DNA of 39,531 bases from Nemertoderma westbladi (GCA_032718475.1 JAUCBJ010001716.1:1-39531), one strand, 5' to 3'. Numbered from the stretch's first letter, positions 5,808 through 39,531 are shown. Notes: generated by a model not told the origin, from the sequence alone. Numbers and translations: made by a program.

Positions 5808-5983
5808 TTATACGTGTTGTTGCCCATGGGATGACCTTCAGTGGATGAACCCGTTTCTGGGTTACCGCTAGTACTTGGTAGCCCATAGGTATTATTTGAC
5901 GGTATGGTTTTTCTTGCGATCTCCCATTCTGGGATTCCAGAATTGGACTGTGAAATTCCAGATATGGCTGTTTCGGCAGTACC

Positions 5984-7888
5984 TTAGCGAAGTACTATTT
6001 TAGGTACAGCTGTGGCAGGGACAAGAGACTGGAGCGACTCACTAGCTACATGATTGTTTGGCATCTGGTGGTTAATTATTTCACAATCCTCTATATTGAG
6101 TGAAATAGTTCTATTTCTACCTGTAACTACAGAATCTACTGGTTTTGTGGCTGACTCCTCATCCACGCTAATATCTAGTACATCGAACCTATTAGATACA
6201 GGTATACCCGGAGATGTTCTATCTAGCATGGGCGTACTAACTACATTACCGGTGCCGCCTACTACGGTCCAAGTACTACTATTTGCTACAGTATCCCCTA
6301 GAGAAATTGGTGAAACATTTTGAACAGTAGCCAATACTACACCAGTGCTGCTGTACTGGTGGGCTGCGCCACCATTAGTATCAAAAGTTTCACTTTGACG
6401 GGAACTATTGGGTCTGAGAGATACACCAGTCGAGACATTGTTAGTAAGTGATGTGGATGTTAGTGGGTTAGAGTCAGAATTGTTAAAATGAATTGAGTTA
6501 TATGGACTGATACAGCTATAATGAATGAAGTTACTGTTAGTCGGGTTATTATTTGTTGTGATGCTACCACCATTAGCATTAACATTGAGACTAGTACCGG
6601 TAGATGAGTTGTTAAAATTACCAAAGCTATTAACATTACCACAGTTAGGAACCAGTGCAGTTCTTTGGATGTGATGATAACTGGGGTTATATGGTTCGAA
6701 ATGATGTTGAGGTTGGTAGTAGGCCATGTTGTTCGTTGATGAGTTGCCGAGGTTGCGATATCGTAGAGGTTGAGATATTCCGGAATATGGGTGACGAGCC
6801 AAGTTTGGAGCACATTGACTGGATACACTGGGATTAATATTAATAATGTCTGAGAGCCTCACATTAGGATTCTCGTAAACTTCCCATCCGTTTATTTTGG
6901 TGCCGTTTAAGTACAGGTTATTTCCCCGCAACGAGTTGGTTACACCAGCGCGTCGGGCTTCCCGCGATAAACGTGATAGTGTATCACGCTGTTGTCTGAG
7001 CTCATAGGGGAGATCTTCAAGAAACTTTAAAGGCGAATCTCTCAACAGGTTACGACCTGCTGTAAGGACGGCGTTCCTGGTCTTTAGACTTAAAAATTCG
7101 ACTTTAATGGGACGTTTAGAGTTCGGTTTTATCGCGCCGATCCAGAATGCTCGTTCGATATTCAGCTGAGACGATATTTGTAATTTAGTAGTTATAATTT
7201 CTGCAATTAGAGCTTCAACAACCTCACCTCGATTCTCCACTGCCCCAGTAAGAAGTAAACAACGACTGGAGTTCTGCTTCTCCGATTCAACGTGGCATCT
7301 ATGGAGACGTTGTATATTCGATCTATTGGTTTGAATATCTCCTGCTGCCTTCCCCAATGCAAGGTTTAGCTCGTCAACACCGGCCTTGATATCCGGAATC
7401 ATTTCTAGGTAGAACGATAAACCCGGTTGGCCTATTGTCGGACCAGTGCGAGTGTCACTACGATCGCTGAATAGGCTTCCATGGACTGGTGGGGTGCACG
7501 GATAACCATGGTTTTGGGTTTGCCACCTAGTGTTTTCGAAACCTGTGGCGCTGGAATCCGAACCTGCCAGCCTCTGGGCGGCATATTGCTGGGGAAACTC
7601 GGATAGACGTTGACCCACCTGTGGAGGGTTGGGCGAATCATTGCTTGTGACACGTGGGCGTTTGTGAGAAGGCTTTCCGAGGCAGGGACCGTTACCGGAA
7701 GTAGGCCCTCTTGTACCAGTAGACCAAACGGGAAATGACGATGTAGCTAGTGTACCGGTATTTGGTATGAAAATAGGTTCATTTATTATTATCTGGGAGT
7801 TATTAGCTTCGATAAGTTCAATTTGAGTCGCCTCTCCGTAGCAGACGGAACCATCTAGCATATTAGTAACCCCGGTATTTGTATTCAT
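5984..7888 (-). CDS. LINE ORF1 nucleic-acid-binding protein (L1-ORF1/Transposase_22-like coiled-coil, RRM and CTD core)
   Basis: Core segment SRCLLLTGAVE...LNIERAFWIG...KRPIKVEF...FLEDLPYELRQQR...LYLNG, flanked by low-complexity S/N/T-rich regions and positioned directly upstream of ORF2. The same frame stays open past the 5984 stop until 5762. Confidence 0.82.
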   Translation of the reverse strand: MNTNTGVTNMLDGSVCYGEATQIELIEANNSQIIINEPIFIPNTGTLATSSFPVWSTGTRGPTSGNGPCLGKPSHKRPRVTSNDSPNPPQVGQRLSEFPQQYAAQRLAGSDSSATGFENTRWQTQNHGYPCTPPVHGSLFSDRSDTRTGPTIGQPGLSFYLEMIPDIKAGVDELNLALGKAAGDIQTNRSNIQRLHRCHVESEKQNSSRCLLLTGAVENRGEVVEALIAEIITTKLQISSQLNIERAFWIGAIKPNSKRPIKVEFLSLKTRNAVLTAGRNLLRDSPLKFLEDLPYELRQQRDTLSRLSREARRAGVTNSLRGNNLYLNGTKINGWEVYENPNVRLSDIININPSVSSQCAPNLARHPYSGISQPLRYRNLGNSSTNNMAYYQPQHHFEPYNPSYHHIQRTALVPNCGNVNSFGNFNNSSTGTSLNVNANGGSITTNNNPTNSNFIHYSCISPYNSIHFNNSDSNPLTSTSLTNNVSTGVSLRPNSSRQSETFDTNGGAAHQYSSTGVVLATVQNVSPISLGDTVANSSTWTVVGGTGNVVSTPMLDRTSPGIPVSNRFDVLDISVDEESATKPVDSVVTGRNRTISLNIEDCEIINHQMPNNHVASESLQSLVPATAVPKIVLR

Positions 7889-9286
7889 ATTGTTTCTTCT
7901 GGTGAGTTCAGTATTACTCGATTACTGTATACTATATCAATAACAGAATACAGAATAATAAATAATAATTGATAATAATAATAATAATCATGTATATTTC
8001 TTCTAGTACTGTAGTACAGTAGTAGGCCTTGGTACCGATACAGCAGTATAGTACAGTAGTAGGCCTTGGTACAATATGCCTTGGTACAATACTGTTAAAT
8101 AACTTGTTTAGATTATTATAAACATTTCAGCATTTAGTCAATTTGCATTAGCCTCAACTTTTTTAGTCCAATTGTCCAATCCGTACTAAATTCGTTATTC
8201 CTGTATTCTGGTATTCTATGCTACGAATTTAATAAAAATCTAGGTGAACTGTGAACACACCCCCCCCCCCCCCCCACCCCCCCTTCTGCCGGTACAATAT
8301 AGTACAAAAGCCTGAAAGCTGGTTACAGTGTCAATAGCGGCCTTCTGGCAGTCTGGCCTTGGTTCTGTGGTCAAGTATGAAAGGATTGATAGAACTTTGA
8401 TTCATGTAGATTTTGACTGGCATACTGCATACGTAGTAAAAGTTAGTAGGCTACTGTTTCGTTTGTATAATACAATACAGCAATATAATGCAATACGGCT
8501 GTACGGTAATACTTAGCTGCTATGCTGTGGGTGGATATAAACTCGTATAACTGAGACTCGAAATTTAGGTCATAGTCTTAAAGTAGCCCATAAACTGAAG
8601 GATAGACTGTATACTACACCGTGTGCTAGTGCTACGTGCTACGTATAGACTACGTTATGTAGGCTATGTACAGATGTATGTATGCCTCTTTCTGGCAACT
8701 TTATTGAGTTATCCTTCTGCAATTTTGCGTGCTTGGCAGCTTGGGACCGTTTTTTATGTTTTTCTAACACAAAAAGCTGCATTAAACTCATAAGATTGTA
8801 TTATTGTCATACTTTCTGACAGCTAGATTAGTCATAATCTAAGAATTTCCGCTAAATTTATTAGATTATGACTTAGGGTTAGGCTGTTAGGGTTACATGA
8901 CACTTTTAATTAGGGTTGAGGCCTGACAAACTAACCGTAAACAAAATAATAAACCAAACCATCTTTGAAAGAATAAATGGTTATGATAGGCCTATATCTG
9001 TATATGGCATGACAATACAGCGATATGCCTGCCTGGATATGACAGTGTACCGGTAACTGTCTGACTAAAGGCAGATAGGCAGAAAGGTGGTTTACAACAG
9101 TGGCCTACAAGTAACAAAAAGTGTGGGTACCGGAAACTGCATTGAGCCAATGCTTTGGTGGTGCAATCTGATTAATTCTCTATGTTCTGTTCACCATGAG
9201 CTTTTATACCTGACATAATCGGATTATTGATCTAAAATGTACACCCAGTGAAAATCTGAAGACCAAACAGCCAAACCTGCAAACTG

Positions 9287-10550
9287 GGGTGCTGGTCACC
9301 TCGCCTCACTGCCACTTCGCCGCAAGTCATCTCGCTGCAGATAATGTGCGGCGAGGTGTCTTGCGGCGAGGTGTCTCACTATAAATGCAATTTCGCCGCA
9401 TATTATCGGACACCTCGCCGCAAGTCAATATAAATCATTTATTTCTATATTTACACGAAAGCCTACTTATGGCATTGGACATTATTATAAGAAGAAATAA
9501 AATAATACGGTAAGGTTTGTTGTTATATTATAATTACTGTATTATATTACATGTTATCATAGATACTGTACAGTAAGAGTATTTGAGTAACGTATTAGAT
9601 TATAGTAAAATACGGTCATAAAGATTCATAGAGGACTATGAATAACATATAATGAGTATTCTGACATAGAGGTCAGATCAGAATACGGTCATTTAAGTTG
9701 TTTCCATGTCATTGATTACGGTACTTTGCAGCGTTACGAGTAATTTTCCAGAACACTGTTAAGTTGGCATAATGTACTGTCAGACTGTAACAATAACTAT
9801 TTACGTACATGTACAATGTACTAAGTACGGAAACGGAAGTAAGGCAACATAATGTAATAAGGTTAATACAGTAATACTGTATGTTTATGTTAAATCTTAA
9901 TTACAAATGTAATGTTCTTAGTGGATTGATATACTGTACTTATATTTGTTGTCCAGTTATCAGACACTTTTTTTGTTAAGAGCAAAATTATGGTCGAATT
10001 ACATTTCAAATTAATTTTCATGACATTAATAATAATCAATAATATTGCATTAAATATTATAATTTTTTTTAAATTTCTTACATTACCTATTCTATTTATT
10101 TGTGTGGAATTAATATCGCACTACCAAATCGCCAGGACAAATTTAAAGAAATTCCAACAAATAATTATTTATTACATGGGAAAAAAGTAGAACTTTTTTC
10201 ACTATTCTCGAGGCATTTTTAATATGTTACTCAAATACCGGTACTCTTACTGTATCTATAATAATACAGTAATTATAATAGAACAACAAACCTTACTGCC
10301 TTACCGTCTGACCGTATTATTTTATTTTATTTTATAATACATAATGTCCAATGCCATACTGCCATAACTAGGCTTCCCTGTGTAAATATAGAAATAAATG
10401 ATTAATATTGCCTTGCGGCGAGGTGTCCGATAATTTGCGGCGAAATGGCATTCACAGTGAGACACCTCGCCGCAAAGACACCTCGCCGCACATTATCTGC
10501 GGCGAGGTGACCTGCGGCGAAGTGGCAGTGCGGCGAGGTGACCAGCACCC
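9287..10550. mobile_element. Mutator-like (MULE/foldback) non-autonomous element with ~310-bp TIRs
   Basis: Ends GGGTGCTGGTCACCTCGCC / GGCGAGGTGACCAGCACCC. Long imperfect inverted arms (~9287-9597 vs ~10219-10550) contain repeated GCGGCGAGGTG. Perfect 9-bp TSD TGCAAACTG at 9278-9286 and 10551-10559. Confidence 0.9.
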
Positions 10551-11013: not shown

Positions 11014-11975
11014 TATACAGTATATCCTGATATCTACCTCTACCTCATTAAAGAAAAACAAAAAAAAAATCAGATTTGTACGTTTTGCGGCTCAAGTGAT
11101 CGAAATAGATACCGGTATCAATGCCTGTCATGTGCGCGCTGCCCAACTATGAGGGAGTTGGCTGCAATATGAACTCACATCTCAGTTCAATAAATCTTAA
11201 TTCAGCGTAACTCTTAAAAAGGTGTTGCATACCGGTACCTGTATTTTATTTATATTAAATTATATTGTGCCAATGTGCCCTCTGTATAGGGTACTATACT
11301 GCTTTATATATACTGAATACTGATATACTTTGTAAACATTTTTATCCGCTTTTACTTTTTAAGTGATTAAAACCAAATTATCCCGTGTGCCGTGTGGAGT
11401 TATAAAAAAAACCGGCACACTATCAGACTATAAAATATGTATATATTGTACTGCAGTCAAGGAATTTTTTCTATTATAAGTCAGTGAAAATTGAAACTAA
11501 AATAGAGTAGCAACCCTGAATATTCTTGTTGTATGAGCCCATTTGTTTGTCTGTTTGTGGTGCTTAACGGCATTTAAGTGATTGTAATAATAATATTCTG
11601 ATAATCAAAGTAATAATAAGTGATAATCAGATAATTAAAAAAAATAGTTTGATTAAACTACGGCTGTACGGTAACTGACTAAGATATAACAACTTTACAA
11701 GTTCCAAACTCCTAAGCCGCCTTATGTGTGGGCCTGTTATAAAATAATATATTTTTCTTCATTACCGGTACTTATGTAGCGTACCGGTAGCCTATAACCG
11801 GGTCTATAATGAACTGTATCAGATTTAAATACAATTTAAAGAGTTTTATTAAGAATTTAAATGGAATTAAATTGAAACATTTTTGCTACGACTTACACTC
11901 TGATTGGCCTCATCTTTATGTCTCTCTCTATATATAGGCCTATGATTTCACAGGTATTTCCATAAAGTTGCAACT

Positions 11976-13616
11976 ATGGCAACGTCTCACAATGGTGTTC
12001 TCAATTTTAATATTGGAGTTTTGGGTCACGTAGATAGCGGGAAAACCTCGTTGGCTCGGTCGTTAAGCACGGTTGCTTCGACGGCTTGTTTCGATAAAAA
12101 CCCCCAAAGTCAGGCGCGAGGTATCACCCTGGACCTGGGATTCTCGTCCTTTACCCTTCCCATTCCGCCCCACTTGGATTCCACTGACTACCATTCCCTC
12201 CAGTTAACGTTAGTAGATTGCCCGGGCCACGCCACTCTCATCAAAACAATAATAGGTGGCGCTCAGATTATCGATCTTATGCTGCTTGTTGTTGACGTTG
12301 TCAAGGGAATGCAGACGCAAACAGCGGAATGCTTAATCATCGGTGAAATTACTTGTAAGAAAATGGTTGTAGTTTTAAATAAAATTGATTTACTTCCGGG
12401 AAATAAACGCAACTTGGTAGTAGAAAAGATGACAAAGAGAATTCTTAAAACATTGGAGACAACGACTTTCCGAGATTGCAAGGTGGTTCCTATAGCAGCT
12501 AGCCCTGCGGACAATGATCCCGCCTTGGGTATTGATGATTTAATCGAAACACTAAAGGGCGAAGTCTACCTGCCGCGTAGAAGTGGTGATGGCGACTTTA
12601 TATTCTCGATAGACCATTGTTTCGCTATTAAGGGTCAGGGCACTATCATGACAGGAACTGTAACCAGCGGATCTGTTAAACTACACGATGTCGTTGAAAT
12701 TCCCGCCATGAAAGAATCTCGGAAGGTGAAATCGATGCAGATGTTTAAGGAGCCGGTTAGTTCGGCTGTCCAGGGAGACCGACTGGGTCTCTGTGTTACT
12801 CATTTCGATCCTAAACTAATAGAACGGGGTTACCTCGCATCCCCTGGGGCTGTGCTAACGTTGTATGCCGCCGTTATTAAACTTAATCCTATTCGCTTCT
12901 TCAAAGGTTCTATTAACAACAGGTCGAAGTATCACATGACCGTAGGCCACGAAACAGTGATGGGTAAACTACAACTGTTCTCATCCTCCTTAGAAGATTA
13001 TCAGTTTGATTTGGCTAAAACTTATTCGTTTCAAGATGAATTCATTCGCAACGATGAAAGTGAAATTAATAAGGTGGATTTTGTTTTGATTTATTTTGAT
13101 AAAGCCATCATTTGCCCTAAGGATTCTATTGTCATCGGTTCTAAACTCGATACCGATATCCATAGCAACACATGTAGATTGGCCTTCTACGGGACGATAA
13201 TTCAGCCAATCACCGATAAGAACTACAAGGAGACGTTCCTTCCTCTGCTGAAGATTTACAAAGTTAAGAACCGCCAAGGAACGGTGGAACGAATTCACGA
13301 CGAATCAACGTTAATAGGGAAGAATTTATTTAAGAAAGAAACGAATATTCAGAACTTTATCGGATTTAAGGTAACTCTGTCCAGTGGGGACTCCGGTTAT
13401 ATTGAGTCGGGTTTCGGGCAGTCGGGCAAATATAAACTTCGTATTCCCGCTGGGATATCCGAGGCTATTAGAAATGAGTTTATTAACGTCAGCGGGAAAC
13501 GCAAGGCTAAGAAAGAACTGGAAGATGGAACGGCGTCGCAGGAACGGAAGCCTGTAGTCGTTTCGTTAACCTTTAAACGCTTTTTGTTCGATCCTGAGAA
13601 GAAAATGATTCAATAA
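11976..13616 (+). CDS. EEFSEC: Selenocysteine-specific translation elongation factor (eEFSec/SelB), single-exon CDS
   Basis: NFNIGVLGHVDSGKTSLAR, ACFDKNPQSQARGITLDLGFS, DCPGHATLIKTIIGGAQIID, NKID, DHCFAIKGQGT, SKLDTDIHSNTCRLAF and the eukaryotic C-terminal domain (GFGQSGK; FKRFLFD). 546 aa, uninterrupted. Confidence 0.97.
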   Translation: MATSHNGVLNFNIGVLGHVDSGKTSLARSLSTVASTACFDKNPQSQARGITLDLGFSSFTLPIPPHLDSTDYHSLQLTLVDCPGHATLIKTIIGGAQIIDLMLLVVDVVKGMQTQTAECLIIGEITCKKMVVVLNKIDLLPGNKRNLVVEKMTKRILKTLETTTFRDCKVVPIAASPADNDPALGIDDLIETLKGEVYLPRRSGDGDFIFSIDHCFAIKGQGTIMTGTVTSGSVKLHDVVEIPAMKESRKVKSMQMFKEPVSSAVQGDRLGLCVTHFDPKLIERGYLASPGAVLTLYAAVIKLNPIRFFKGSINNRSKYHMTVGHETVMGKLQLFSSSLEDYQFDLAKTYSFQDEFIRNDESEINKVDFVLIYFDKAIICPKDSIVIGSKLDTDIHSNTCRLAFYGTIIQPITDKNYKETFLPLLKIYKVKNRQGTVERIHDESTLIGKNLFKKETNIQNFIGFKVTLSSGDSGYIESGFGQSGKYKLRIPAGISEAIRNEFINVSGKRKAKKELEDGTASQERKPVVVSLTFKRFLFDPEKKMIQ

Positions 13617-13955: not shown

Positions 13956-14831
13956 CGTACCACTAATACGTACCACTAACACGTACCACTAACACGTACC
14001 ACTAACACGTACCACTAATACGTACCACTAACACGTACCACTAACTAACACGTACCACTAACACGTACCACTAACACGTACCACTAATACGTACCACTAA
14101 CACGTACCACCAACACGTACCACTAACACGTACCACTAATACGTACCACTAATACGTACCACTAACACCTACCACTAACACGTACCACTAACACGTACCA
14201 CTAACACGTACCACTAACACGTACCACTAATACGTACCACTAACACGTACCACCAACACGTACCACTAACACGTACCACTAACACGTACCACCAACACGT
14301 ACCACTAACACGTACCACTAACACGTACCACTAACACGTACCACCAACACGTACCACTAACACGTACCACTAACACGTACCACTAATACGTACCACTACC
14401 ACGTACCACTAACACGTACCACTAACACGTACCACTAACACGTACCACTAATACGTACCACTAACACGTACCACCAACACGTACCACTAACACGTACCAC
14501 CAACACGTACCACTAACACGTACCACTAACACGTGCCACCAACAAGTACCACTAACACGTACCACTAACACGTACCACTATCACGTACCACTAACACGTA
14601 CCACTAACACGTACCACTAACACGTACCACTAACACGTACCACTAACACGTACCACTAACACGTACCACTAACACGTACCACTAACACGTACCACTAACA
14701 CGTACCACTAACACGTACCACTAACACGTACCACTAACACGTAGCACTAACACGTACCACTAACACGTACCACTATCACGTACCACCAACACGTACCACT
14801 AACACGTACCACTAACACGTACCACCAACAC
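13956..14831. repeat. 13-bp minisatellite (CGTACCACTAACA)n, about 67 copies
   Basis: Head-to-tail tandem array with recurrent single-base variants (…TAATA, …CCAACA) and no spacers. Confidence 0.97.
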
Positions 14832-17097: not shown

Positions 17098-17304
17098 GGG
17101 TGTGTGATCATTGGTGCGGGTGGGACAGCGCGGGTGTGTGATCATTGGTGCGGGTGGGACAGCGCGGGTGTGTGATCATTGGTGCGGGTGGGACAGCGCG
17201 GGTGTGTGATCATTGGTGCGGGTGGGACAGCGCGGGTGTGTGATCATTGGTGCGGGTGGGACAGCGCGGGTGTGTGATCATTGGTGCGGGTGGGACAGCG
17301 CGGG
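17098..17304. repeat. 34-bp GC-rich minisatellite, 6 identical copies
   Basis: Unit GTGTGTGATCATTGGTGCGGGTGGGACAGCGCGG repeated in perfect tandem. Confidence 0.96.
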
Positions 17305-17624: not shown

Positions 17625-17787
17625 GTAGGTTTTTATATATTTTTGATTCGCATTTCATTATATGGTATATTATTTACTATGCGATGTACGGGTACCGGTA
17701 CACTACACCTACACTACACACACAGTTAGTTATCTTTCTAAATTGTATATTTATAATATTTTATTAATTAGCCTTTAGTTTTTGCAG
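17625..17787 (+). other. Probable 5' UTR intron of FHIT
   Basis: Donor AAG|GTAGGT at 17625, AT-rich body, acceptor TTTTTGCAG ending at 17787, 40 nt upstream of the ATG. An alternative acceptor TTTACAG ends at 17822. Confidence 0.5.
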
Positions 17788-17827
17788 ATTTCTCTCCATA
17801 TATAGCGGTAATATATTTACAGAAGCG

Positions 17828-18268
17828 ATGTCTACATTATATTTTGGTCCGCACATTATAATTTCCCCCCGTATCGTATTCTACCGAACTGCTTTATCAT
17901 TTGCCTTTGTGAACCGGAAACAAGTGGTTCCCGGACATGTCCTGGTATCGCCTATCCGTCGAGCCCAAAGGTTCAACGAACTCACTCCGGACGAGGTCAG
18001 TGACCTTTTCCTAGTCGCGCAAAGGGTATCTTCCATCATGATGACTCACCACTCGGCGAGGTCAATGACCTTAGCCATACAGGACGGGCCAGACTCGGGA
18101 CAAACTATACCCCATGTCCATATACACGTGTTGCCAAGGAAACCCGGGGACTTTAATAGCAACGACGATGTATACAAACATTTGGAATCTCACGATAAGA
18201 AAGTTGTTGAGTGGAGGATTGAAAGTGATATGATTCATGAAGCAGAAACATTAAAAGAGTATTTTTGA
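17828..18268 (+). CDS. FHIT: Bis(5'-adenosyl)-triphosphatase (fragile histidine triad protein), single-exon CDS
   Basis: FG.H.I, SFAFVNRKQVVPGHVLVSP, AIQDGPDSGQT and the HIT motif HVHIHVLPRKPGDF. 146 aa, full length for a stand-alone Fhit. Confidence 0.96.
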   Translation: MSTLYFGPHIIISPRIVFYRTALSFAFVNRKQVVPGHVLVSPIRRAQRFNELTPDEVSDLFLVAQRVSSIMMTHHSARSMTLAIQDGPDSGQTIPHVHIHVLPRKPGDFNSNDDVYKHLESHDKKVVEWRIESDMIHEAETLKEYF

Positions 18269-18739: not shown

Positions 18740-19774
18740 ATGTCCCACAAGGAGAAACGCGCCCTCAAAAGGAAGCACAGACAAGATGAACTGATAAAGC
18801 AACTGGAAAGACAAGGTAATGATTCCATGGAGCCGATTCCCAGTCCTCCCGCCAGGGGGCGCACATACACGGTTAGCATCGCCCTGCCGGGGTCCATCCT
18901 GGACAACGCCCAGTCTATCGAGCTGCGGTCCTACCTGGCGGGACAGATCGGCCGAGCCGCGGCGATAATGAACGTCGACGAGGTGGTTGTCTACGACGAA
19001 TCGGCGTCCGGTACCGGCGGAATATCCGGCGAGTTTACCGGGATCGGTCGTCACGGAAACGGGAACGTGCAACTGGCCCGGATCCTCCAGTACATGGAGT
19101 GTCCGCAGTACTTGAGGAAACTTCTGTTTCCGGTGCATCGCGACCTGCAGTACGCGGGTCTACTCAACCCGCTGGATACCCCGCACCACTCGCGAGCCGA
19201 TGAACCGAGCGCTTACCGAGAGGGTCTCGTTGTCAATAAGGCCGCAAAGGCCGGTAGAAGTTTAGTCAACTGCGGTATGGGAGTCGATGTGGAGGTGGAT
19301 AAACCGTTAGCTCCCGGTACGCGGGTCACAGTTCGTATGAAGAACCCCGGAGTTCACCAAGGTGCTAAGGTCCGCGGTGTTGTTGTGGGTTCTAGCACCC
19401 CCCGGCGGGAGGACGGTATATACTGGGGCTATTCTGTGCGTCTCGCAAGCAGTCTAAGTGACGTCATATCCGGTTGTTTGTATAAAGAACCCTATGACGT
19501 AACTCTAGGTACATCAGATAAAGGTGAAAGTTTGGAGGACTTAGAATTATCTCCCTTTAAACATTTACTAATTGTTTTCGGTGGTATTAAAGGAATTGAG
19601 GCGGCGTTAGCAGCTGATGGAAGTCTAGAAACTGGCGAACCGCGCGATATATTCGACCGGTATTTGAACACGTGTCCCGATCAAGGTTCCAGGACTATTC
19701 GTACCGAGGAAGCTATATTGGTAACACTTGCTGCTCTCAGACCTAAAATACTGGCTGCTAATAATACTGGCTGA
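18740..19774 (+). CDS. SPOUT1: SPOUT domain-containing methyltransferase 1 (C9orf114/CENP-32 homolog), single-exon CDS
   Basis: GRTYTVSIALPGSILDNAQSIELRSYLAGQIGRAAAIMNVDEVVVYDE, LQYMECPQYLRK.LFP.H.DLQYAGLLNPLD.PHH, GIYWGYSVR, and YLNTCPDQGSRTIRTEEAIL. Confidence 0.96.
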   Translation: MSHKEKRALKRKHRQDELIKQLERQGNDSMEPIPSPPARGRTYTVSIALPGSILDNAQSIELRSYLAGQIGRAAAIMNVDEVVVYDESASGTGGISGEFTGIGRHGNGNVQLARILQYMECPQYLRKLLFPVHRDLQYAGLLNPLDTPHHSRADEPSAYREGLVVNKAAKAGRSLVNCGMGVDVEVDKPLAPGTRVTVRMKNPGVHQGAKVRGVVVGSSTPRREDGIYWGYSVRLASSLSDVISGCLYKEPYDVTLGTSDKGESLEDLELSPFKHLLIVFGGIKGIEAALAADGSLETGEPRDIFDRYLNTCPDQGSRTIRTEEAILVTLAALRPKILAANNTG

Positions 19775-21303: not shown

Positions 21304-22255
21304 TGAGTTGAGTGCTAGTGGATCTGCGTTATTTATTAAACAATAACTAATTTAGTGTGTGGGCGATAATAAATTAAAAATATTAAAATTACCTCACGGG
21401 TTCCTTTCAACTGGAGTTTCTGCTAGTAACCTAAGCTCTTTCTTCAATAAGTTCTCGTTTTTGTTATTGAATACAATCCTACTAGATGTCCAGTGAGTTG
21501 CAGTTATTTATTTAACACACAAATTTACCAGATCAAATTACCTACTAAACTATTTAATAAATGTCAGTAAATTACGGAAAATAAATGCCAATAAAGACAA
21601 ATATCACTGGATTGAAGATTCTGTATGTTGTACCAACTCAGCGCCGATCCTTACTGAGTTCCGTGATTCGGGACCTTCCATATGCTGAGGACGGAATATT
21701 TCGGTGAGTTTTAATCCTCTAACTAAGGAAGCACCAAGGAAATCCACGTCGCTACAAAAAATTTATATGTTCGAAAAACTTTGTAAGGCAATTGAATGGA
21801 TTGATATTACCGCAGATATTTATTGTATCCAAGTGTTCTATAATATCGCGTGTTATACAGTATGTTGTATTTGTTGTGCATATATGCAATTTTTTATTTG
21901 TCCTTTAATTGATACACAAAATGGATATATAAAATAATAATTATCGATACTATCTTTCTTATCTTTATTTTCCCCTTTTATAAATCTTTATCATATGGTT
22001 AATGTTGGCTGATGTAAATATTGCACTTGAATTTTTGGTGAAAATTTAGTATTAGTAGTACCCTGTAATTCGTAGGCAGATAAGGTTATATTTACCTATA
22101 AAGTAGATCATTAAACATAAACAAGTTCGATTGTCCAGAGTACTTAGTAATGTTTAGATAAAAGTTGTGACAACTTCTACTATTTAAATTGTTAGTTTGT
22201 TGGAGTTATTATAATATATGTTTGTATGAAGTTTATGGTTTAAGAAGATGTCAAT

Positions 22256-25054
22256 ATGGAAAGTGAACCCCTAACATCGGATGATGAGCACCTAATAGTT
22301 ATAATCCATGAAATGGCCGGTTTAGAGACACAAAATAACTCAATCATTCCCACGTCCCAATCAGTTGGTTCCCAGGCAACCATTAACCAATCAGTTGACC
22401 GACCAACCCCGTCCATGCAACTCTACTCCGGCACGGGATTGGATATTGGTTCTGTGACGTCAGCGTCCGCCCCATCCCCGGGGGTCATTCAGCACACATC
22501 TACTGCGGCGCGGACCCAGCGACCCCTCCAACCGATGCTACCCAGGTCGTTGCTAACCGGACCCAAAGCGAAACCCAAGCGGACGAGAAGCGTATCGGAT
22601 ACGCCTCTATCGGAGAACGATTTACCGGCTTCCCACGCGACGAGCGCCTTTCCCAACCTGGTTGCCATGCAACCCGGTTACCAACCGTTAACTTTCGTCC
22701 CCTCGTTACCCGCTTGGTTACAAAATCCGCCGCTTGGTGGCGTCGTCCCCGATCCAAAGTCCGGTTCGGTTATCGTCAAGCACGGCGGCTCCCTATTGGC
22801 TACCGCTTGTGATTCAACCAATCCAGCTGTGCAGGGATTGGGGAGCGCTTACACCGCAGGTAACCAATCACTGCCCTGTATAATCGCTCCCAAACGGGCG
22901 TCCATCCACTCCGAAGCGCTGACTCACCAACAGCTGTTGATACAGACAGTTCCGCACCTGAGTGACCCCCCCGTATTGGCTGCAGATGACATGGAACCCG
23001 CCACCGCGGGCGCGGTGAAATCAGCAGGTGTGGTGGGACCAGCTGGTGCGGTGGGACCAGGCGGTACGATGGGGCCAGCTGGTGTGGGGGGACCAGCTGG
23101 TGCGATGGAACCAGGCGGTACGATGGGGCCAGCTGGTGTGGGGGGACCAGCTGGTGCGATGGGACCAGGCGGTACGATGGGACCAGGCGGTACGATGGGA
23201 CCAGGCGGTACGATGGGACCAGCTACTATTATAACAAATAGTAAATCGCATATTCCACCACAAATAGTCAAGATGGAGGTTGAATTGGAACCAGAAACAT
23301 CAACCCCAATTAGTTCCATCGCTTATAACCACGTGAGGACTAATCCAGCTAGGGGCCGGTTATCAGACGCGACAGTGATGTCAGGTGGCCTAATACAGCA
23401 GGAAGTATTACCTAACCTGGGACAGGAGGCCCTGGCCGATAGACTGATGGGGATGGGGAGTCAATTGGGGGCTGTTGATGTAGGGTCTAGTGACAAAGTG
23501 GTAAATAGATCAACTGTTTCCCAACCATCAGCGGTGGATGTGACGCCCACCTCCAAATATGTGACTACATTCATACAACCAGTGGCACCCTACCCCCAAC
23601 CAGTGGCGCCCTACTCCCAACTGGTGGTTCCCACCCCACTCCCTCAGGCTCCCGCCCCACTCGGTGACTTCCATTCACCCGGTCACTCAACTGCCAGTAA
23701 ACCCTCCAGAGACCCCGTATCCACCTCCCACCCCGAACCAGTTCTGTACTCCCCTCCGGGTCTCAACGGATTGCAAACTGAAGTAGAAGTAGCTGGTAGG
23801 GAGGGGGTGTCCCCTGGGGAGTCAGTACCCACAGAATCGGCTAAACCAGCTGCTAAATCGAGACGAAAGAACCTCCAAGGGTCCGTCAACTGGGACGACC
23901 AGCAAGGAAACTTTCAGTTTCAGTCAAAGAAGTTTACTGAGGCCATTCCACCGCTGGCTCCCCTTAGCGACCATTCTGTGTACACGTATAATCCGTTGTC
24001 CCCACGGAAACAACGTCAGGCGGCGCGACGCATATCAAAAGCGTCATCAGAGCGTAACGATAGCAACGACCAATCGCAATCCGTCGTTACTCCAACCGAT
24101 ACTCAGTTTATCCAACCAATGGAAATGCAGCCCATTAGCAGCATCGTGCAGTCCCAGTTGGGTGTCACAGAACCATTGGCTGAGGTCGACCTAACTCAAT
24201 CGACCAATCAGCTGCCATACAGCGGGGACCTCTCGGCTGTGGTTGTCTCCGAGGATGAACCCCGCAGTAGCGACGCGAGTAAACGAATCCGCGTTGAGGT
24301 CGACTCACTACCTCCGACTATCAGTAAACCCCTGTCCCCCTACGCGTTGTTCTTCAAAGACATGCAGCCGACTATTAAGGACCAATCACCGAACGCCACG
24401 TTCGGAGACGTCTCTAAGCTGGTCGCAAACCTCTGGGAGAATCTTAGCGCGGCCCGGAAGCAGGAATATAAACGACGAACGGATATCGCCAAGGCGGAAT
24501 ATCTGCAGATGTTGGCAGAAACCGGTGTTTCTAACAGTAGTGGAGCGCAGAGCTCGAGTTATACCGGAAGTGACGCCACTCAGAGTCACCAGTATGACGT
24601 CATTAGTGACTTTAGCACTGTCTACCAATCGGACGGGTCGCAAGGGAATAAATTACAGACACCGGAAGTTCCGACTACTCCCGGTAAATCCATACTGAAA
24701 CCGTCGTCCAATAGAAACTCCGTTACTATAGCGACTAGACCTCCGCCGCCGCCTCCCAAGACAGTCCGTAAACCGGTGATTGGGTTGTCCGGTCGGCCGG
24801 TGTTGGCGTCTGGGAGGGGCGCACCGCCGGTGCTGCCGGATAAACGAGCGGTGACCCCGCCACCGGTGCCGGTTATGTGTATCTGCGTTGGTTGCGAGAA
24901 GGAGGCGGTGGAGGACTCGTATTGGGACAACGAGTACTGCAGTCCCCAGTGCGTAGTGGACCACTGCAGGTGGACCTTCCAACGGTGGGTCACTGAGACG
25001 GCTGGCCAACCCGCCGCTCCGCTTGTGTCTAATAACGCCACAACTTCCGCTTGA
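22256..25054 (+). CDS. TOX4: TOX-family HMG-box protein (TOX4-like), single long coding exon
   Basis: TOX-type HMG box [57 protein letters not shown] and TOX4-type C-terminal Cys motif C..GC......WDNEYCS..CVV.HCR..F..WV. AATAAA lies immediately after the stop. Small upstream exons are possible (GTAAGT/GTGAGT donors near 20122, 20325, 21704). Confidence 0.9.
23027..23224 (+). repeat. Coding 18-bp-unit minisatellite inside TOX, encoding a Gly-X-Y run
   Basis: GGACCAGCTGGTGCGATG / GGACCAGGCGGTACGATG-type units give 22 triplets, 21 of which start with Gly. Confidence 0.9.
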
Positions 25055-31284: not shown

Positions 31285-31610
31285 CTATTTTTTCACAATT
31301 TTGGGAAATATATATTCCTTCCAGAAGCTACTACTACGTTTAAGTAAACTTTGCATGTATATGGAATCATATGATACTTCAACTATTTTCACTTCGCCAT
31401 TTATTTCAAAAGATGGATCTGCGACGCAAAACAAGGCCCATTGTTTATTGCAAAGATGCATTTGAAGTTGGATTTGTGACATGAATTTAGCGCTTACGAT
31501 ATTCGATTGTGTAAGATAAGATTTTTGAATGGCATGTTTTGATGTTGGACATTTTACTTCTACCACATGCGTTGGTGTAATGGCATCTGAAATGGCATCA
31601 AAAAATAAGA
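31285..31610 (-). pseudogene. YqaJ/lambda-exonuclease-like (PD-(D/E)xK) domain, C-terminal portion
   Basis: ISDAI....VVEVKCP (degenerate SPDG...EIKCP), SQIQLQMHLC....ALFCV, and F(W)KEYIFP. The N-terminal half is absent from this frame. Confidence 0.8.
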
Positions 31611-32447
31611 TTTTGTGGTATTTTATAAAAACACTAGCTACAATATGAAAACAGTACATACCATTGAAAACACTAGCTACCACAAACATTTGTTTTTATT
31701 TTCTTTAAAACATTTTTTTTCACATGTAACTAGCCAAAATTTGTCAAGAACATAAACCTATAGCCCAAAACATTATGTTTTGGTATTTTTTGGTATTTTG
31801 ATATTTTTGGATGTCAAACCAAAAACAGCTATTATGAAAGGCAGAATAATGGTGACACGGGCAACACTAGTACCAGTAACACTTTACAGTGAACTGACAA
31901 AAAATCTAAATAATTTCCATCTAGTGCTAATCTACCCATCCCGCATTGTTCGCTGTAAAAACAATAAAAAAATAGATTAATGAAACGCCTGGAAGTATTT
32001 AGCTAGCTATATTTATTTTTAGCTACACCCATCATTATGTCTAAACAGAAAGTTAAAGTAAAATTAGGTGCGGCATATTCGTTCAGCCTCAGCATGATGT
32101 ACAGTTACCACTGGTACCATCATTTGCATTGACCATTTTTAAAATTCAAAGACTCACATTTCAATAGGTAATAATTGGTGACTGGTGTGCAGGATCGAAA
32201 TGGAGTGGATTCAATGGGCAGGGTGCCTATGTAGCTCTCTCAATCTCTCAAGGGTTACAAAACTTTCAGGACTGTACTTATTATCAGCATTGGATGCCAA
32301 TATTGTGAAACAATTTAAGCCAACCAGTGATCAAACAGCAGAAATTGAAATGTTACAGAAACTCTAATGATCTCTGTTTCGAGATCAGTGCATACATATT
32401 AGATGTCATATTGGTAACAATATTATACTGTATATAATATAACATGT

Positions 32448-32972: not shown

Positions 32973-35900
32973 ATGTGTATAGTGTATATCATCAACCTTG
33001 TTGTGAATCTAATGTGCATATTGTAGGCCTATTATACATATGTAATGAAATCAATTAAATGCTGAAACGAATAGTAATATCTTACTTACTTTACTAGTAC
33101 TGTATTAACATTTTAACTTTTAAAATACCTGATTTATGCGATATATATTATACGAACGTACAATTTTGATGGTATAAGGGTTTTCGAGGTCGCTGATCCC
33201 GATAAAACAAAAATATTTTCTTGCAATGCAACCATCATAAACCAAGACGAAAAGTAGTTACAAGTAAAAAATGTCCAAATAAAAAAATTTGTGTTTGGTT
33301 TGATAATTCTGAAGATATTTGGGTTTTCGACGACGAAACTAGTTATAAATATTTATGGTAATGCAAACCGAATGTTGGTGCCATTTGGTGCCCCAGAACG
33401 AAAAATACAAGAAGCAAAAATTACATACTGTTAAATTTTATCTTCGGTTTGGTAATTCTGAAGCTACAGTATGCGGGTTGTTAAAAATCATTGGTGGTAA
33501 CGCAACTATCATTTTTGGTACCACTACTTGTCTTGTGGGACGAAAAATACAAGTAGCATAAAATTTCAAACGGTTAAAATCTAATTTAGTTGGATAATAC
33601 GATATTTTTGAGTGTCGCACTGTATTTGTCATCAGCGTCCCAGAAAACCGCTAATGTCAAGATTGATTTGATTTGGTAATGATTTTGATTATCAAATTTG
33701 TGCTACTTGAATTTTTCACATTGACACATATCCAAAAATGCCCATATCAACAACAAAAAAATAAGAACTATAGAAGTCTGTCTGCGTGTAGAATTTCTAT
33801 TTAATCAATGATCCAATTTTTATCTGAACTTTCTGCGGTGAAACTCAGAACCCAATAGAAAAAATATCGGGCAAGAACGCTTTATTACCTAACAGTTCGA
33901 CCGATATTTTTTTCCGCCAGTAAAATAATAATCGCCATATTATCTAAAAGATATTATAGTTGCCAAAAATTTATTAAAAATGTATAATTGAAAACATATA
34001 AATTGTATAATAATAAATATTATAATTAACTTATATATGACATACTACATACTAGGGCCTACGTGCTATCTAGATAATGGAGATACTACAATTTGCTTTT
34101 ATCCCGTTAACCACTCAGTGACTCATATAAAATATATAAGGGTAAAAAAGTTGAACTAGACACTTCCTGCAGCTGGTATTGAATAGTTTGCATTTTCAGG
34201 TTGTACAGTTTGCTGGGTTATCAACACTATTTTACTATAGCTATATATGTTTGCCTTCTGTCTTTCCTCCAGTTTTTGGCCATATTTCATTAATATTCTG
34301 TGCAGGTTATTGTTATTGTTATTGTTATTTACCATGGAAATAATAATATAATTTTGTGTTTGTAAACTTATAACGAACCTGTCTTTAGACTGGGTAGTTT
34401 TTGTCTAAAGCTGAGGCCGGCAAAAACACGATGGATATATATATTTACCTATATCACTATATATATATGTCACTATATCACTCACTATGTATGTTCACCA
34501 AATGGCTTGAAACCACTTGCATGCATTGTAAAATTGTAAACGCAAGTATTTATCAATTGTTGTCTAGTTGTTGAATAAAAAAGTTGGGAACGATTCGAAG
34601 TGCGATATTCGAAATATTTGCATATTTTCAACATTATTGAACGCGAAATTAAATACCCACAACTCCCTTGCTTGAAATGTTTTTCAGGTGATTGATATTT
34701 AGCAATTATTATGAGGTTACTTACTACTGAAATCTGACAGAATGCCAAACGTATTATTATAGTTCTATCTCTATTCAGCCAGTTAGTGTAATGTCAAGCA
34801 GTACATCATTTATATATCGTATGTATCTATAGGGCCTAATTGTCATCGTTATAATACTGTCATCAACTTAGGCTAAGCTCAATTGTAATGCAAAGGCTTA
34901 GTAGGTTTTGTATATCTGGGACGTTTACAACAGCTGTCGATTAAACTAACAAAACCATAAAACTGAACCAGGGTGGCTGCCAGCCGGGTACCAACGGCTG
35001 TTGGGTAGACTTAAGGGAACATTTCACAAACTTTCATAGGATGCTTGTACATGTACATTATATTGGTTGCTCCGATGTTTTTATTAGGCTAACTGAGAAT
35101 GTATCAGGTATAAATACTGTAATTATAGTGTTCTTTATTTTATTTATCTAATACAGAAAAGACCCCTCCGCAGAATAAACTGCTCTTTTGGGCCGTTTCT
35201 CAGGTTGCGGATATGGATACCATTTCACACATCATCGTAGTAATTGTGATCATGATTTGTTTGCCTAGGCGAATGTGTATTACATTAGATGGGAGGCAGT
35301 TTTTTGGTTGATGCAAGTCATTCTTGGTTTGCATCTTCCAATCCCCATCTGTTTCTTGGAGTCTGTGTAAGACAGGTTCGTTTAAAGCCATCTTGATGGC
35401 GTTCTAGTATATATAATATAATAACTAGAAACGGGCCTAGCTGCCCGTGAACGAACCGCCTGGTCAACTAAAACAAAACTCATTACCGTCTCATCTCATT
35501 CTCTGTACAAGTTTCGTTTAGGTAGGTAGGACGGACGGCAATATATCAGTTCAGCTGACCGCTGTAGGCTACTGATACTGAATTGTAATTATACATTGAT
35601 TGGTTGATAAACATCTCTAGCCATGAAATGGGCGCACTGCAATCCGACCACAACTCATGCAGTATTATTGTTCAGCCAGTTTCAATAACGGGATTGGTAC
35701 AAAACAGTTTTAATATATCGTGAGGCAGACATGTTAATGAAAGGTCAACCAAGTGTGTCGTTATCAGCCTTTAGTTAAAATTCCCTGATTCCGATTCAAT
35801 ATTGCTCATTCTGCTTAATTTTTATGCTGACTGAGTTTTACGCTTTTTAATCTTTACGTTTACATATATCATTGATATTGGTGAGAAGATCAATATGGTT

Positions 35901-36547
35901 CAACTAGAAGAACTGTGTTCTCTGGTCGATGGGACAATTATCAGTAAGTACCGCCTGTAATTATTTGTTTAGTTTACTATTATTTATTACCACATTGTTG
36001 TCTTGTAATTTCCATGGTGAACATTTTAAAAAATGTATCTAAACGTTTTTGACTTTAGTTGTTCTCAATCAGAGGTGTTCCTCAATTTAACTATAATTAA
36101 ATGAACTAATTAATGTTAATTATTTTATTATTAAATTGCACCTTTTCACGCAAATAAATTAGTATACAAATATATAAACTCCAGCTACTTTTTTCACTTA
36201 CTGGTACCACTACCTATCAATTTCAATAACTCATCGCGTTACTCAAGGTGATAACAACATCCAATGAAATTAGACGCAATCCCCATTAACAAAAAATTTC
36301 AGGATACTACACAGATTCACACATGATACCATGCATGTGTGCCGTTGCAAACTGAGCTACTCGGCCACGATAAATTAAACATCAAATTTAGTCCTAATAC
36401 TTCAAAATGAGTAGGCCTACCGGTACGCAATTATCGTAATAATAAATGTTACAGATCAGTCGGACTGAACGCTGCCTTAGCGACGGCTTTTAACCCTTTG
36501 ACGCCTGAAGCTGCAATTGAAACTACATGCTAGGGCAGTTACGGACA

Positions 36548-36885
36548 GTTGCCTATATAGGCATCAATAGACATTTCCTATTTAGGCAACATTTACAATG
36601 TAGTGTTGCCTTTATAGGTAATAGTGATGTATCTTTACTGCCTAATTAGGCAACATGTGACAGTCAGAGTTATTGATTATATTTTTTAAAATAAGGATAT
36701 TAATTTGGCGCTGAATATTGTTACTTTAATAAATACAACAAGGTATAGCCCTGTAATTGATACTGGAACCAATTTTATTTACCTGTTTGTCTGGACGCAA
36801 TGGTGTCTTTTTGTGAGGTGATGTCACTCATGTTGCCTAAATAGGGAACCTCAAAAAATTGGTTTGTGATGCCTATTTAGGCAAC
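36548..36885. promoter_or_regulatory. Cluster of six perfect CArG boxes (CC[A/T]6GG) in GTTGCC-W6-GGCAAC palindromes
   Basis: CCTATATAGG 36552-36561, CCTATTTAGG 36577-36586, CCTTTATAGG 36609-36618, CCTAATTAGG 36641-36650, CCTAAATAGG 36836-36845, CCTATTTAGG 36872-36881. Confidence 0.8.
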
Positions 36886-37449
36886 TACATACAGACATAT
36901 ACATACTGATATACTTTGATTATAAGAAAACGTTTTGGAGGATTGAGTTCAGTCAATCATTTGATCTTTTTTTACTCTGTTACCGATTTCAGGATCTAAT
37001 TTCTTTTAATTTACTTCCAGTACCTATACTCTTAAGACTGTCATGTCATAGTGCGGATTCATATTGCGTAGTAGCGTAGTAGGCCTACAGTTGTAGCAGA
37101 GCAGCGCAACAGTAGGTATGCCATGTCAAGATACTAGTAGTTATTATTTAGGCTGCTTTTAACGCTCGGATTGGCAGATTGTTTCTATTTCGAATTTTTA
37201 ATAATTGAGTCCGAGCGTTTCTGTATTTAGTATTGTGAAATTTTATACCTTCACTAATTCAGTCAATATAGGCTAGGCGACTTCATTTCATTGCAAGTGA
37301 TCAAAGACATATATGTAGTTGCTATTCAGTCTTAAATCAGTTAGTATATACTGTATTAATACATTTATCTCACCATCCAACTGTATATTACACACTATAG
37401 TTAGTCAGTCACATCTGTATTTAACCTAAATATATATAACCTAAACTAA

Positions 37450-39120
37450 ATGGAATTCGAAATTGGGAGCGATACCGATGATGATTGTAATGATTCTGGC
37501 CTGATGTTGATGAATAGATTGTGGCAAAATACACTACCCGAACTTAATATACCGCCGCACTACTACCCAGTTGATCCACAACCCAAAACACCTCCATTAT
37601 CCGACTGTGATATCCCATCTCCGATTCTATCGGATTTCGATGACGAAGGTAAAGATAAATCCTGGTTTCCTGTGAGGAATGATGGCAAGGGCATATGTAG
37701 GGGTGGTTATGGTGTTGGACATGGTGGTTGTGATGGAGGAGGGGACAATGACATTGGGGTTATCACAGGGGGCATTGAGGGTAGGCCTATTGTAGTTGGT
37801 GCAGAAGGTATTTGGGGAGGTGATATTGTCGGACACAGTAGTTGGAACTAACGTCATTGGGGGTGTTATTGGCAATGGGGAAATAGTAGTTGGAACTGCT
37901 GAGGACATTGGGGGTGATATTGAGAATATAGTAGTTGGAACTAAGGACATTGGGGGTGATATTGAGAATATAGTAGTTGGAACTGAGGACATTGTTGGTG
38001 ATATTGAGAATATAGTAGTTGGTACTGAGGACATTGGGGGTGATATTGAGAATATAGTAGTTGGTACTGAGGGTATTGGGGGTGACGTTGGGGGGCTTTG
38101 GGGGTGAGATTGGAAGTGGGGCTGAGAACATCGGACATAAAAAGAGAAAACTGAAACGCAAGACGCGGGATCAACTGACTTTCAGTGCTGATAAAAAGCG
38201 CAATAGAGATTCAACTCTTTGTAAACGAAAGTCAACCTTAAAATCTAAGTCTGATGATTTGGATATTACGACTCAAGTAAAAACAGACTTAATTTTTATG
38301 ACCTCAAAGATTTCAAAGACAACCAAAAAGGAAGTTTTCCATTTAGAATTTTATTCTTCGCATGATAAACACGCTACCAATACAAGTATTACAAGTCTTC
38401 TTTCTGGCCTAAATCTTCCCCTATCTACTATTAGCAAACAAGAGTTCTCAACTAAGGGAGAGGCACGACAGGCTGTGGGCCGCATACTTATGGGAGATGA
38501 GTCTGCAGGCTATGATGGTGGTGGAACTGCATGTGATTCGCATGTGGATGCACCACAGCCACTAGTGACACCAACAAAGGCGCCATATAGTGCAATGCCA
38601 CGTGTGTTTCCTATTCCATCCCAAGTATGTAGGATTTGTGGGGAACTTAGTGGAGGAGAACGGGATATGGGAGGCTTGTGGTTTGGATGCCGTGGTATTG
38701 AAGGTAAATGTTCTGCATGGGCACATGCCACTTGTCTTGGTGTTGGAAAAAATACAACAGCTATTACGGATAAATTGGAATGGAACTGTGCTGTTCATTT
38801 ATCAGGGATCAGCACAACACAAAGCCGTGTTACACAGGTAATATCTAATAATCACGAACAAATGTGTCGGATCTGTGGGCATCAGTATGGTGTCATTGGG
38901 GACATCGCTGGCCTTTGGCTAGGTTGTCAAGGGGGTGATAGCGTCTGTAAACAGTGGGTCCATGCCCACTGCTTAGGTTTTCCAACTTTACGGAAAGGGA
39001 GTGAAACAGAAAAATCATTAGTGTGGGAATGCAAAGAAACACTCGAAATTACCTAATGTCCCTGCTTTAACCAAGAGAGGTAGAGGGCGTCCTGCAAAAA
39101 GACAAATAAATAATTTGTAA
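37450..39120 (+). pseudogene. Frameshifted gene (or gene with assembly indels) for a ~555-aa protein: acidic N-terminus, Gly-rich 14-aa repeats, MADS-box-like domain, two PHD-like fingers, AT-hook
   Basis: ORFs 37450-37851, 37796-38107 and 38061-39056, plus a tail to 39120, join into one protein after removing three single bases (G ~37831, G in the G6 run 38090-38095, A ~39033). MADS-like R..T..KRK..L..K..DL...T; two CxxC..W.GC....C..W.H..CLG...W.CxxH fingers; terminal KRGRGRPAK. Confidence 0.75.
37882..38086 (+). repeat. Coding 42-bp tandem repeat (EDIGGDIENIVVGT), about 4.8 copies
   Basis: Units start at 37901, 37943, 37985, 38027 and 38069. Confidence 0.93.
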
Positions 39121-39531
39121 TCAACTAATTGAGTTTTATAGTTTAATATATAGGCCTACTTGTTGATTTTAAAACATTATTTACCTTTGTAACCTCACTA
39201 TGCAATGATTTAAATGCAATAGTTAAGAATTTAATCAGTGAATCATACTTTTAATATTTTGTTTATCTTAAACTCAATTTAAGTATCAAACTCAATTCGA
39301 GACAGGGGAGCTGGGAGGGACTTGACACAAATCACACCTCGATGAATTAAATATATAATCTCGGCAAATTAGCAATGTTAATTATCAATTAAGGGAAAGG
39401 AGCAGGTTACAGTGGTATGCTATTCTACAATAAACGAAAGTCAATAGCAAAGGCTACAGTGGCATATTATTCTAACCAAAACAATAAATTAAATACATAT
39501 ATTCAGGTTACAGTTTCATTTTTGAGAGTAA

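Follow-up and report, generated by a model that had tools for sequence, protein, structure and literature searches.

The last 3 kb of the window, a 39,531-nucleotide stretch of DNA from Nemertoderma westbladi (GCA_032718475.1, JAUCBJ010001716.1:1-39531), appears to hold the left part of a low-copy, TTAA-inserting, piggyBac-like transposon. The protein specified by its second gene combines a MADS-like domain, two PHD fingers and an AT-hook-like tail, and is predicted to bind the six extended CArG boxes that lie in the end block of the same element, a reading to which we give an even chance. That the locus is a mobile element at all is very probable. The broader proposal, in which a piggyBac-type lineage has turned two-component, with the MADS domain as its end-recognition subunit and terminal repeats built from the CArG sites of that domain, is tentative and falls somewhat short of even.

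Transposons are known to disseminate sites to which host factors bind, and some of them encode a DNA-binding partner separately. Here a single element contains a candidate for such a partner as well as the textbook site for it, so that the target of transposon-borne MADS proteins becomes a question for a single gel. If the reading is true, a second-gene design would be added to the TTAA-type elements, with a bearing on whether MADS domains pass from hosts to mobile DNA or back, and there would be a possible route for SRF-type sites to spread through an animal genome or for SRF to be drawn away by competition. Under the two-component proposal, each insertion would add a six-site SRF-type array to the host genome, and MADS would have a first named target as a transposon helper domain.

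The left end and its CArG array

Contigs of four public runs were compared with positions 35500-39531. Three of the runs cover the region: X1 and X3 derive from one sample and X2 from a second study, perhaps the window's own source. The fourth (X5) matches only 39022-39240 and the high-copy repeat. Adjoining contigs overlap by 30 letters, and their break points are taken as probable graph branches.

As the preliminary description had it, TTAA is followed directly by CCCTTT at 36490-36499, the inward sequence beginning with CCCTTT at 36494 (Table 1). In X2, the contig with the unique flank (contig 8) ends at 36519, that is 36489 plus 30, which is the merge point expected if copies share sequence from the T of TTAA onward. 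In X3, contig 16 has the same flank as the window up to 36494 and then 111 letters unlike it; this single contig, in one of the four runs, is likely an empty allele. The end-block contigs stop at 36887 (X2 and X3) and the next ones begin at 36858 (X1 and X2), placing a branch 6 bp past box 6. In addition, 28 unplaced letters lie to the left of 36534 in X1 and X2, and contig ends are loose at 36494, 36534 and 36887.

The end block is 1.25-2.8 times as deep as the adjoining body in all three covering runs, and the body (36858-39401) is deeper than the flank in the same three (63-65 vs 28, 33-52 vs 21 and 84-208 vs 45). Read depth is no copy number, as the tool itself warns, and these values are a hint of few copies with the end block present in two contexts. 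The terminal block would stand in at least two sequence contexts, as a mirror right end or as a short derivative. The earlier proposal of a mobile element at TTAA is supported by the contigs, through the insertion boundary and through the end block, which appears to occur in more than one context and includes all six boxes.

On the inner side, the repeat that closes the window has a summed depth of 20,000-210,000 in all four runs, with many variant joints. It is crossed by contigs of element-like depth, among them X3 contig 22, which extends past the end of the window by 531 letters; the element therefore probably reaches beyond 39531. No inverted counterpart of the left end occurs in the window, and frame and Pfam searches of 36490-39531 gave no frame for a transposase.

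Table 1. Features of the candidate element and its gene, in window positions.
Feature	Position	Strand	Basis or remark
TTAA target site, left junction of element	36490..36493	.	sequence and contig breaks
Terminal block, about 394 bp, starts CCCTTT	36494..36887	+	contig ends, depth; contains entire array
CArG box 1	36552..36561	.	CCTATATAGG
CArG box 2	36577..36586	.	CCTATTTAGG
CArG box 3	36609..36618	.	CCTTTATAGG
CArG box 4	36641..36650	.	CCTAATTAGG
CArG box 5	36836..36845	.	CCTAAATAGG
CArG box 6	36872..36881	.	CCTATTTAGG; ends 6 bp short of the block's inner edge
Gene, broken in window copy	37450..39120	+	frames, X2 contigs
N-terminal frame, acidic and rich in Pro and Gly, without Pfam match	37450..37851	+	
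42-bp (14-codon) tandem repeat, about 6 copies, within gene	37819..38085	+	
MADS-box-like domain with basic N-terminal arm	38160..38330	+	Pfam PF00319, PDB matches
PHD finger 1	38622..38800	+	PF00628; relatives P0002-P0004
PHD finger 2	38862..39045	+	frame break just ahead of final histidine
AT-hook-like RGRGRP tail, in frame after third break	39070..39102	+	by eye
Very high-copy repeat	39380..39531	.	traversed by contigs of element-like depth

The pattern CC(A/T)6GG occurs nine times in the whole window, and six of these matches are clustered in the 330-bp span 36552-36881, which starts 58 bp past 36494. The six perfect boxes, the start of the array and its span are as previously described. 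Spacing from box to box is 25, 32, 32, 195 and 36 bp. Base shuffles of 407 bp (n=20,000) gave a mean of 0.03 boxes and a maximum of 2, and first-order Markov simulations of 394 bp (n=50,000) a mean of 0.06 and a maximum of 3, reached once in 50,000, in line with the earlier estimate of well under 0.1 by chance. The six-box array is far above chance expectation.

All six boxes share an 18-bp palindrome, wider than the CArG core, with the half-site consensus TGTTGCCTAW. The 10-nt spacers outside this palindrome are identical at 0-6 of 10 positions among the 15 box pairs in both orientations, which is no more than background. With unrelated spacers and the palindrome alone in common, a simple recent tandem duplication is argued against, and the box units look like a retained binding word and not like a fresh tandem repeat. 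A T stands two bases outside the CC in all 12 half-sites of the six boxes (binomial p 1e-6) and a TTN flank in nine of the 12 (binomial p 2e-7), both values assuming an independence that the half-sites do not fully have. The other three CArG boxes of the window have the flank in one of six half-sites. TTN and NAA are the prevalent flanks of the 16-bp MADS site (PMC10178880, in part). The preliminary description made no use of flanks, so their fit is added support for MADS-type sites, and the array flanks do resemble real extended MADS sites.

The broken gene and its predicted protein

The first ATG, at 37450, lies 569 bp past box 6, close to the 570 bp given earlier for the distance to the gene, but the MADS-like stretch itself is about 1.3 kb past the array, and two frame breaks lie between that ATG and this stretch. 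The window copy has frame breaks at about 37829, 38092 and 39037. All three are missing from the X2 contigs, two from those of X1 (as listed) and one from those of X3; the window copy is damaged and other copies or alleles appear open. By arithmetic, the open frame of X2 runs for about 562 codons from ATG 37450, the repeat at 37929-38042 being unbridged by any contig listed. Since the 39037 break also occurs in X3 contig 21, sequencing error is an unlikely cause of all the breaks. Splicing around the first two is possible (donor-like 37649-37781, acceptor-like 38185) and is not needed, because contigs without the breaks exist. Between contigs and window there are eight coding substitutions, four silent and four residue-changing, too few to show selection.

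The open frame 38061-39056 (331 aa) contains the MADS-like stretch and two PHD fingers, and the peptide quoted in the preliminary description (about 38181-38297) lies inside it. That description had called the domain SRF-like and had proposed a HMMER comparison with PF00319. Here, the SRF-TF profile matches a 57-aa piece with a significant E of 2.9e-5 but with 23.9 bits, below the curated cut-off of 26; the 331-aa frame scores 19.8 bits (E 5.6e-4). The best PDB matches are to MEF2 and not to SRF: in a search with a 91-aa piece, MEF2 chains make up six of the seven matches, at E values of 0.27-0.5 that are not significant alone. The MEF2 alignment retains R15, N16, R17, T20, K23, R24, K25, L28, K31 and L35 of helix 1. 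Position 14 is K in the window protein vs E in MEF2, and a lysine at this position of MADS domains goes with CC/GG-type sites. The MEF2 DNA-contact residues R15, K23 and R24 are present together with a basic N-terminal arm, R3 aligning loosely, to a basic stretch. Contact roles are described for R15 and K23, the latter reading the box border (PMC10178880, in part).

In a single-sequence model of 101 aa (mean pLDDT 58.1), two strands and a helix are placed as in MADS and helix 1 is unfolded; the corresponding model of 331 aa has a mean pLDDT of 36.6. With a low-confidence single-sequence model as query, Foldseek gave no match at E 0.001, and VIA-align, likewise with a low-confidence model, gave a best Z of 4.8 and no MADS chain among the 50 matches listed. 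The homodimer prediction scored 0.17 vs a mark of 0.32, which is no answer and counts as evidence neither way. Because the SRF-TF score is below the cut-off and helix 1 is unfolded in the model, the domain is named MADS-like only and is not assigned to the SRF-TF family. For the PHD fingers, PF00628 matches two stretches of the 331-aa frame (E 1.3e-8, 35.2 bits vs a cut-off of 24), and the zinc-ligand Cys and His columns are invariant in an alignment with relatives (A1). Pfam made no AT-hook call on the 29-aa piece.

Proposed end recognition and its alternatives

How would an element make use of such a protein? MADS proteins bind DNA as dimers. The same block would stand inverted at the right end, beyond the window, and the MADS-like protein would bind the boxes as a dimer and bend or bridge the two ends. 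It might then recruit a transposase encoded past 39531 or by a sister copy, like the Myb partner of Harbinger, with the PHD fingers and AT-hook tethering the complex to chromatin. End recognition is favoured because the array lies at the tip, fills a block that looks like subterminal repeats, and is accompanied by a protein of the matching family encoded 1.3 kb inside. Against it, the cysteine-rich domain of the T. ni piggyBac transposase binds palindromic subterminal repeats, with inverted TGCGT half-sites 7 bp apart (PMC5861402, in part), so that the array is explicable without a MADS protein. As a whole, the observation made in the preliminary description is confirmed and its interpretation is partly supported.

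If a piggyBac-type protein can read palindromes, are the boxes sites for an unseen transposase, for example for its cysteine-rich domain? Their CArG form would then be coincidental and the MADS-PHD gene would be cargo or an anti-silencing helper. The ends of piggyBac-like elements often have repeats, some of them palindromic, and 94 of 157 such elements have direct or subterminal ones (PMC5381638, in part). The inverted TGCGT motifs of T. ni also look close to the TGCCT arms seen here, but the arms are 7 bp apart in T. ni vs 4 bp in the present boxes (PMC5861402, in part). Two coincidences are moreover needed, namely perfect 10-bp CArG boxes with TTN/NAA flanks in six of six cases and a MADS-like gene 1.3 kb away, and we hold this explanation to be improbable. 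A role as promoter or enhancer, by which the element's MADS-like protein or host SRF switches transcription on or off with no part in end-joining, is the strongest of the alternatives, although still unlikely. It suits an array placed upstream of the first ATG at the distance given above and the transcription-factor-like build of MADS plus PHD, and in plants there are transposons with CArG motifs to which MADS factors of the host bind (PMC7329337, in part). However, the array begins 58 bp inside the tip and coincides exactly with the branching, deeper block, as subterminal repeats do. Promoter activity and end recognition can also be mutually compatible.

The least probable alternative separates the two halves of the locus as mere neighbours, the 394-bp block being a short non-autonomous element of TTAA type and the MADS-PHD gene being a host gene or part of a transposon of another class. 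The end block does exceed the body in depth, with a branch at 36887, and it has no inverted terminus of its own, but it could be truncated. Contrary to what separate neighbours would lead one to expect, contigs overlap from the end block into the body in X1, X2 and X3, the block is not closed at 36887 by a TTAA-flanked inverted end, and the body too is deeper than the flank in the three covering runs, which is again a hint only. Recognition of the element's own end by its own protein remains the favoured reading.

Known systems, relatives and surroundings

The piggyBac-like elements have a TTAA target, first six bases of the form C[C/A/T][C/A/T][T/G/A][T/A/G][T/G/A] and subterminal repeats of up to 400 bp that are sometimes palindromic (Bouallegue et al., 2017; PMC5381638, in part). 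The present locus is the same in all of these. For the target, this holds on the left side only, with the merge point and the likely empty allele at 36490-36493, and CCCTTT at 36494 fits the terminal motif, which is a loose one. However, a piggyBac-like element has by definition two TIRs and its own transposase, whereas here there is a left end and the visible 3 kb have no frame for a DDD transposase with a C-terminal cysteine-rich domain. The element is piggyBac-like and, its left end alone being known, is not filed as a piggyBac member.

Other classes were considered. Kolobok elements also target TTAA but have a purine-purine 5' terminus, whereas this element starts with CC. For Academ, no transposase is in view, and the position of the merge point (36490) speaks for TTAA as the shared sequence and not for the non-TTAA duplication of that class. 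Harbinger elements have a target site of 3 bp, in contrast to TTAA here, and the partner is a Myb protein there vs MADS-like plus PHD here. The proposed likeness to PIF/Harbinger is a second gene whose transcription-factor-type domain would bind element ends and join the nuclease, as is described for the Harbinger Myb partner (PMC4671723, in part). A Pfam search up to E 10 found no Myb, only SRF-TF and PHD, and membership was rejected in favour of a functional analogy only.

Compared with SRF, Mcm1 and MEF2 (PF00319), the window protein keeps the basic helix residues of MEF2 and has cognate-looking 16-18-bp sites nearby. Its domain differs in being divergent (below the Pfam cut-off), in the longer loop between predicted strands, and in its internal position in a protein where it is fused to two PHDs, and it is encoded by what is likely a mobile element. 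Captured MADS boxes occur in maize En/Spm-like elements (ZEM/TMZ1), which like the plant helitrons have, as far as is known, one half of the pairing each, whereas the present element combines gene and sites. The helitrons carry CArG motifs bound by host PHERES1 (PMC7329337, in part). In the literature searched (titles and abstract beginnings), we found no transposon that combines a MADS gene with CArG ends, and no prior description of a TTAA-type end at which such a gene goes with a terminal CArG array; an earlier description might exist outside this search, in Repbase Reports or the AcademH paper. The term 'MADS' has 0 occurrences in the main texts of PMC5381638, PMC13461360, PMC10799480, PMC10294476 and PMC11162782. 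It also occurs 0 times in four supplementary files of PMC13461360, a survey of 13,000 elements, a count that excludes a picture-only PDF, perhaps with a domain-fusion figure.

Word-index searches gave no relatives among 2,459 candidates for the 331-aa frame, among 1,783 for the PHD alignment against longer proteins or among 113 for the MADS piece against longer proteins. A HMMER search of 1.84 billion representatives gave four matches, three of which are short PHD-only proteins, one from pearl oyster; the fourth, a repetitive protein, was dropped as spurious. No full-length relative was found in the collections searched, nor a related locus in 181 stretches of metagenome contigs or in 33 of viral contigs. 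PHROG and Rfam gave no match, and the window protein is absent from the Atlas, where the PHD homologue P0004 returned PHD clusters alone. The searched collections are poor in animal repeats and these blanks say little. The linkage of gene and array comes from a single species and a single family of elements.

A motif scan of metagenomes yielded 30 loci, mostly bacterial or viral in look, none of which encodes a relative (tblastn, phmmer, PHD profile); picked by the motif itself, they were rejected as support. One locus likewise picked by motif (L006, 1131-2120), on a fungal-looking metagenome contig, has six CCTAWWTAGG boxes in repeated units with flanks TTG/TTT and CAA/AAA; its 3 kb contain no MADS or PHD relative, and it is a lead only.

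Elsewhere in the window, eEFSec (11946-13616), a HIT protein (17768-18268), a SPOUT methyltransferase (18740-19774) and a TOX-like HMG protein (22244-25054) occupy one long open frame each, which suggests an intron-poor animal genome. An apparently intact LINE lies at 2133-7921 on the minus strand, with two long open frames of 645 and 1224 aa (RVT_1 E 2.3e-32); together with the four genes, it gives the window the look of animal DNA. Long inverted repeats of 96 and 76 nt, 94-95% complementary and with internal 15-16-bp repeats, give 9287-10550 a MITE- or foldback-like appearance. A YqaJ-like exonuclease fragment at 31285-31695 on the minus strand (E 5.4e-4) is probably the remnant of another DNA transposon. 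The window also contains a 13-bp satellite of 67 copies (13956-14831) and a perfect 34-bp tandem repeat of 6 copies (17098-17304).
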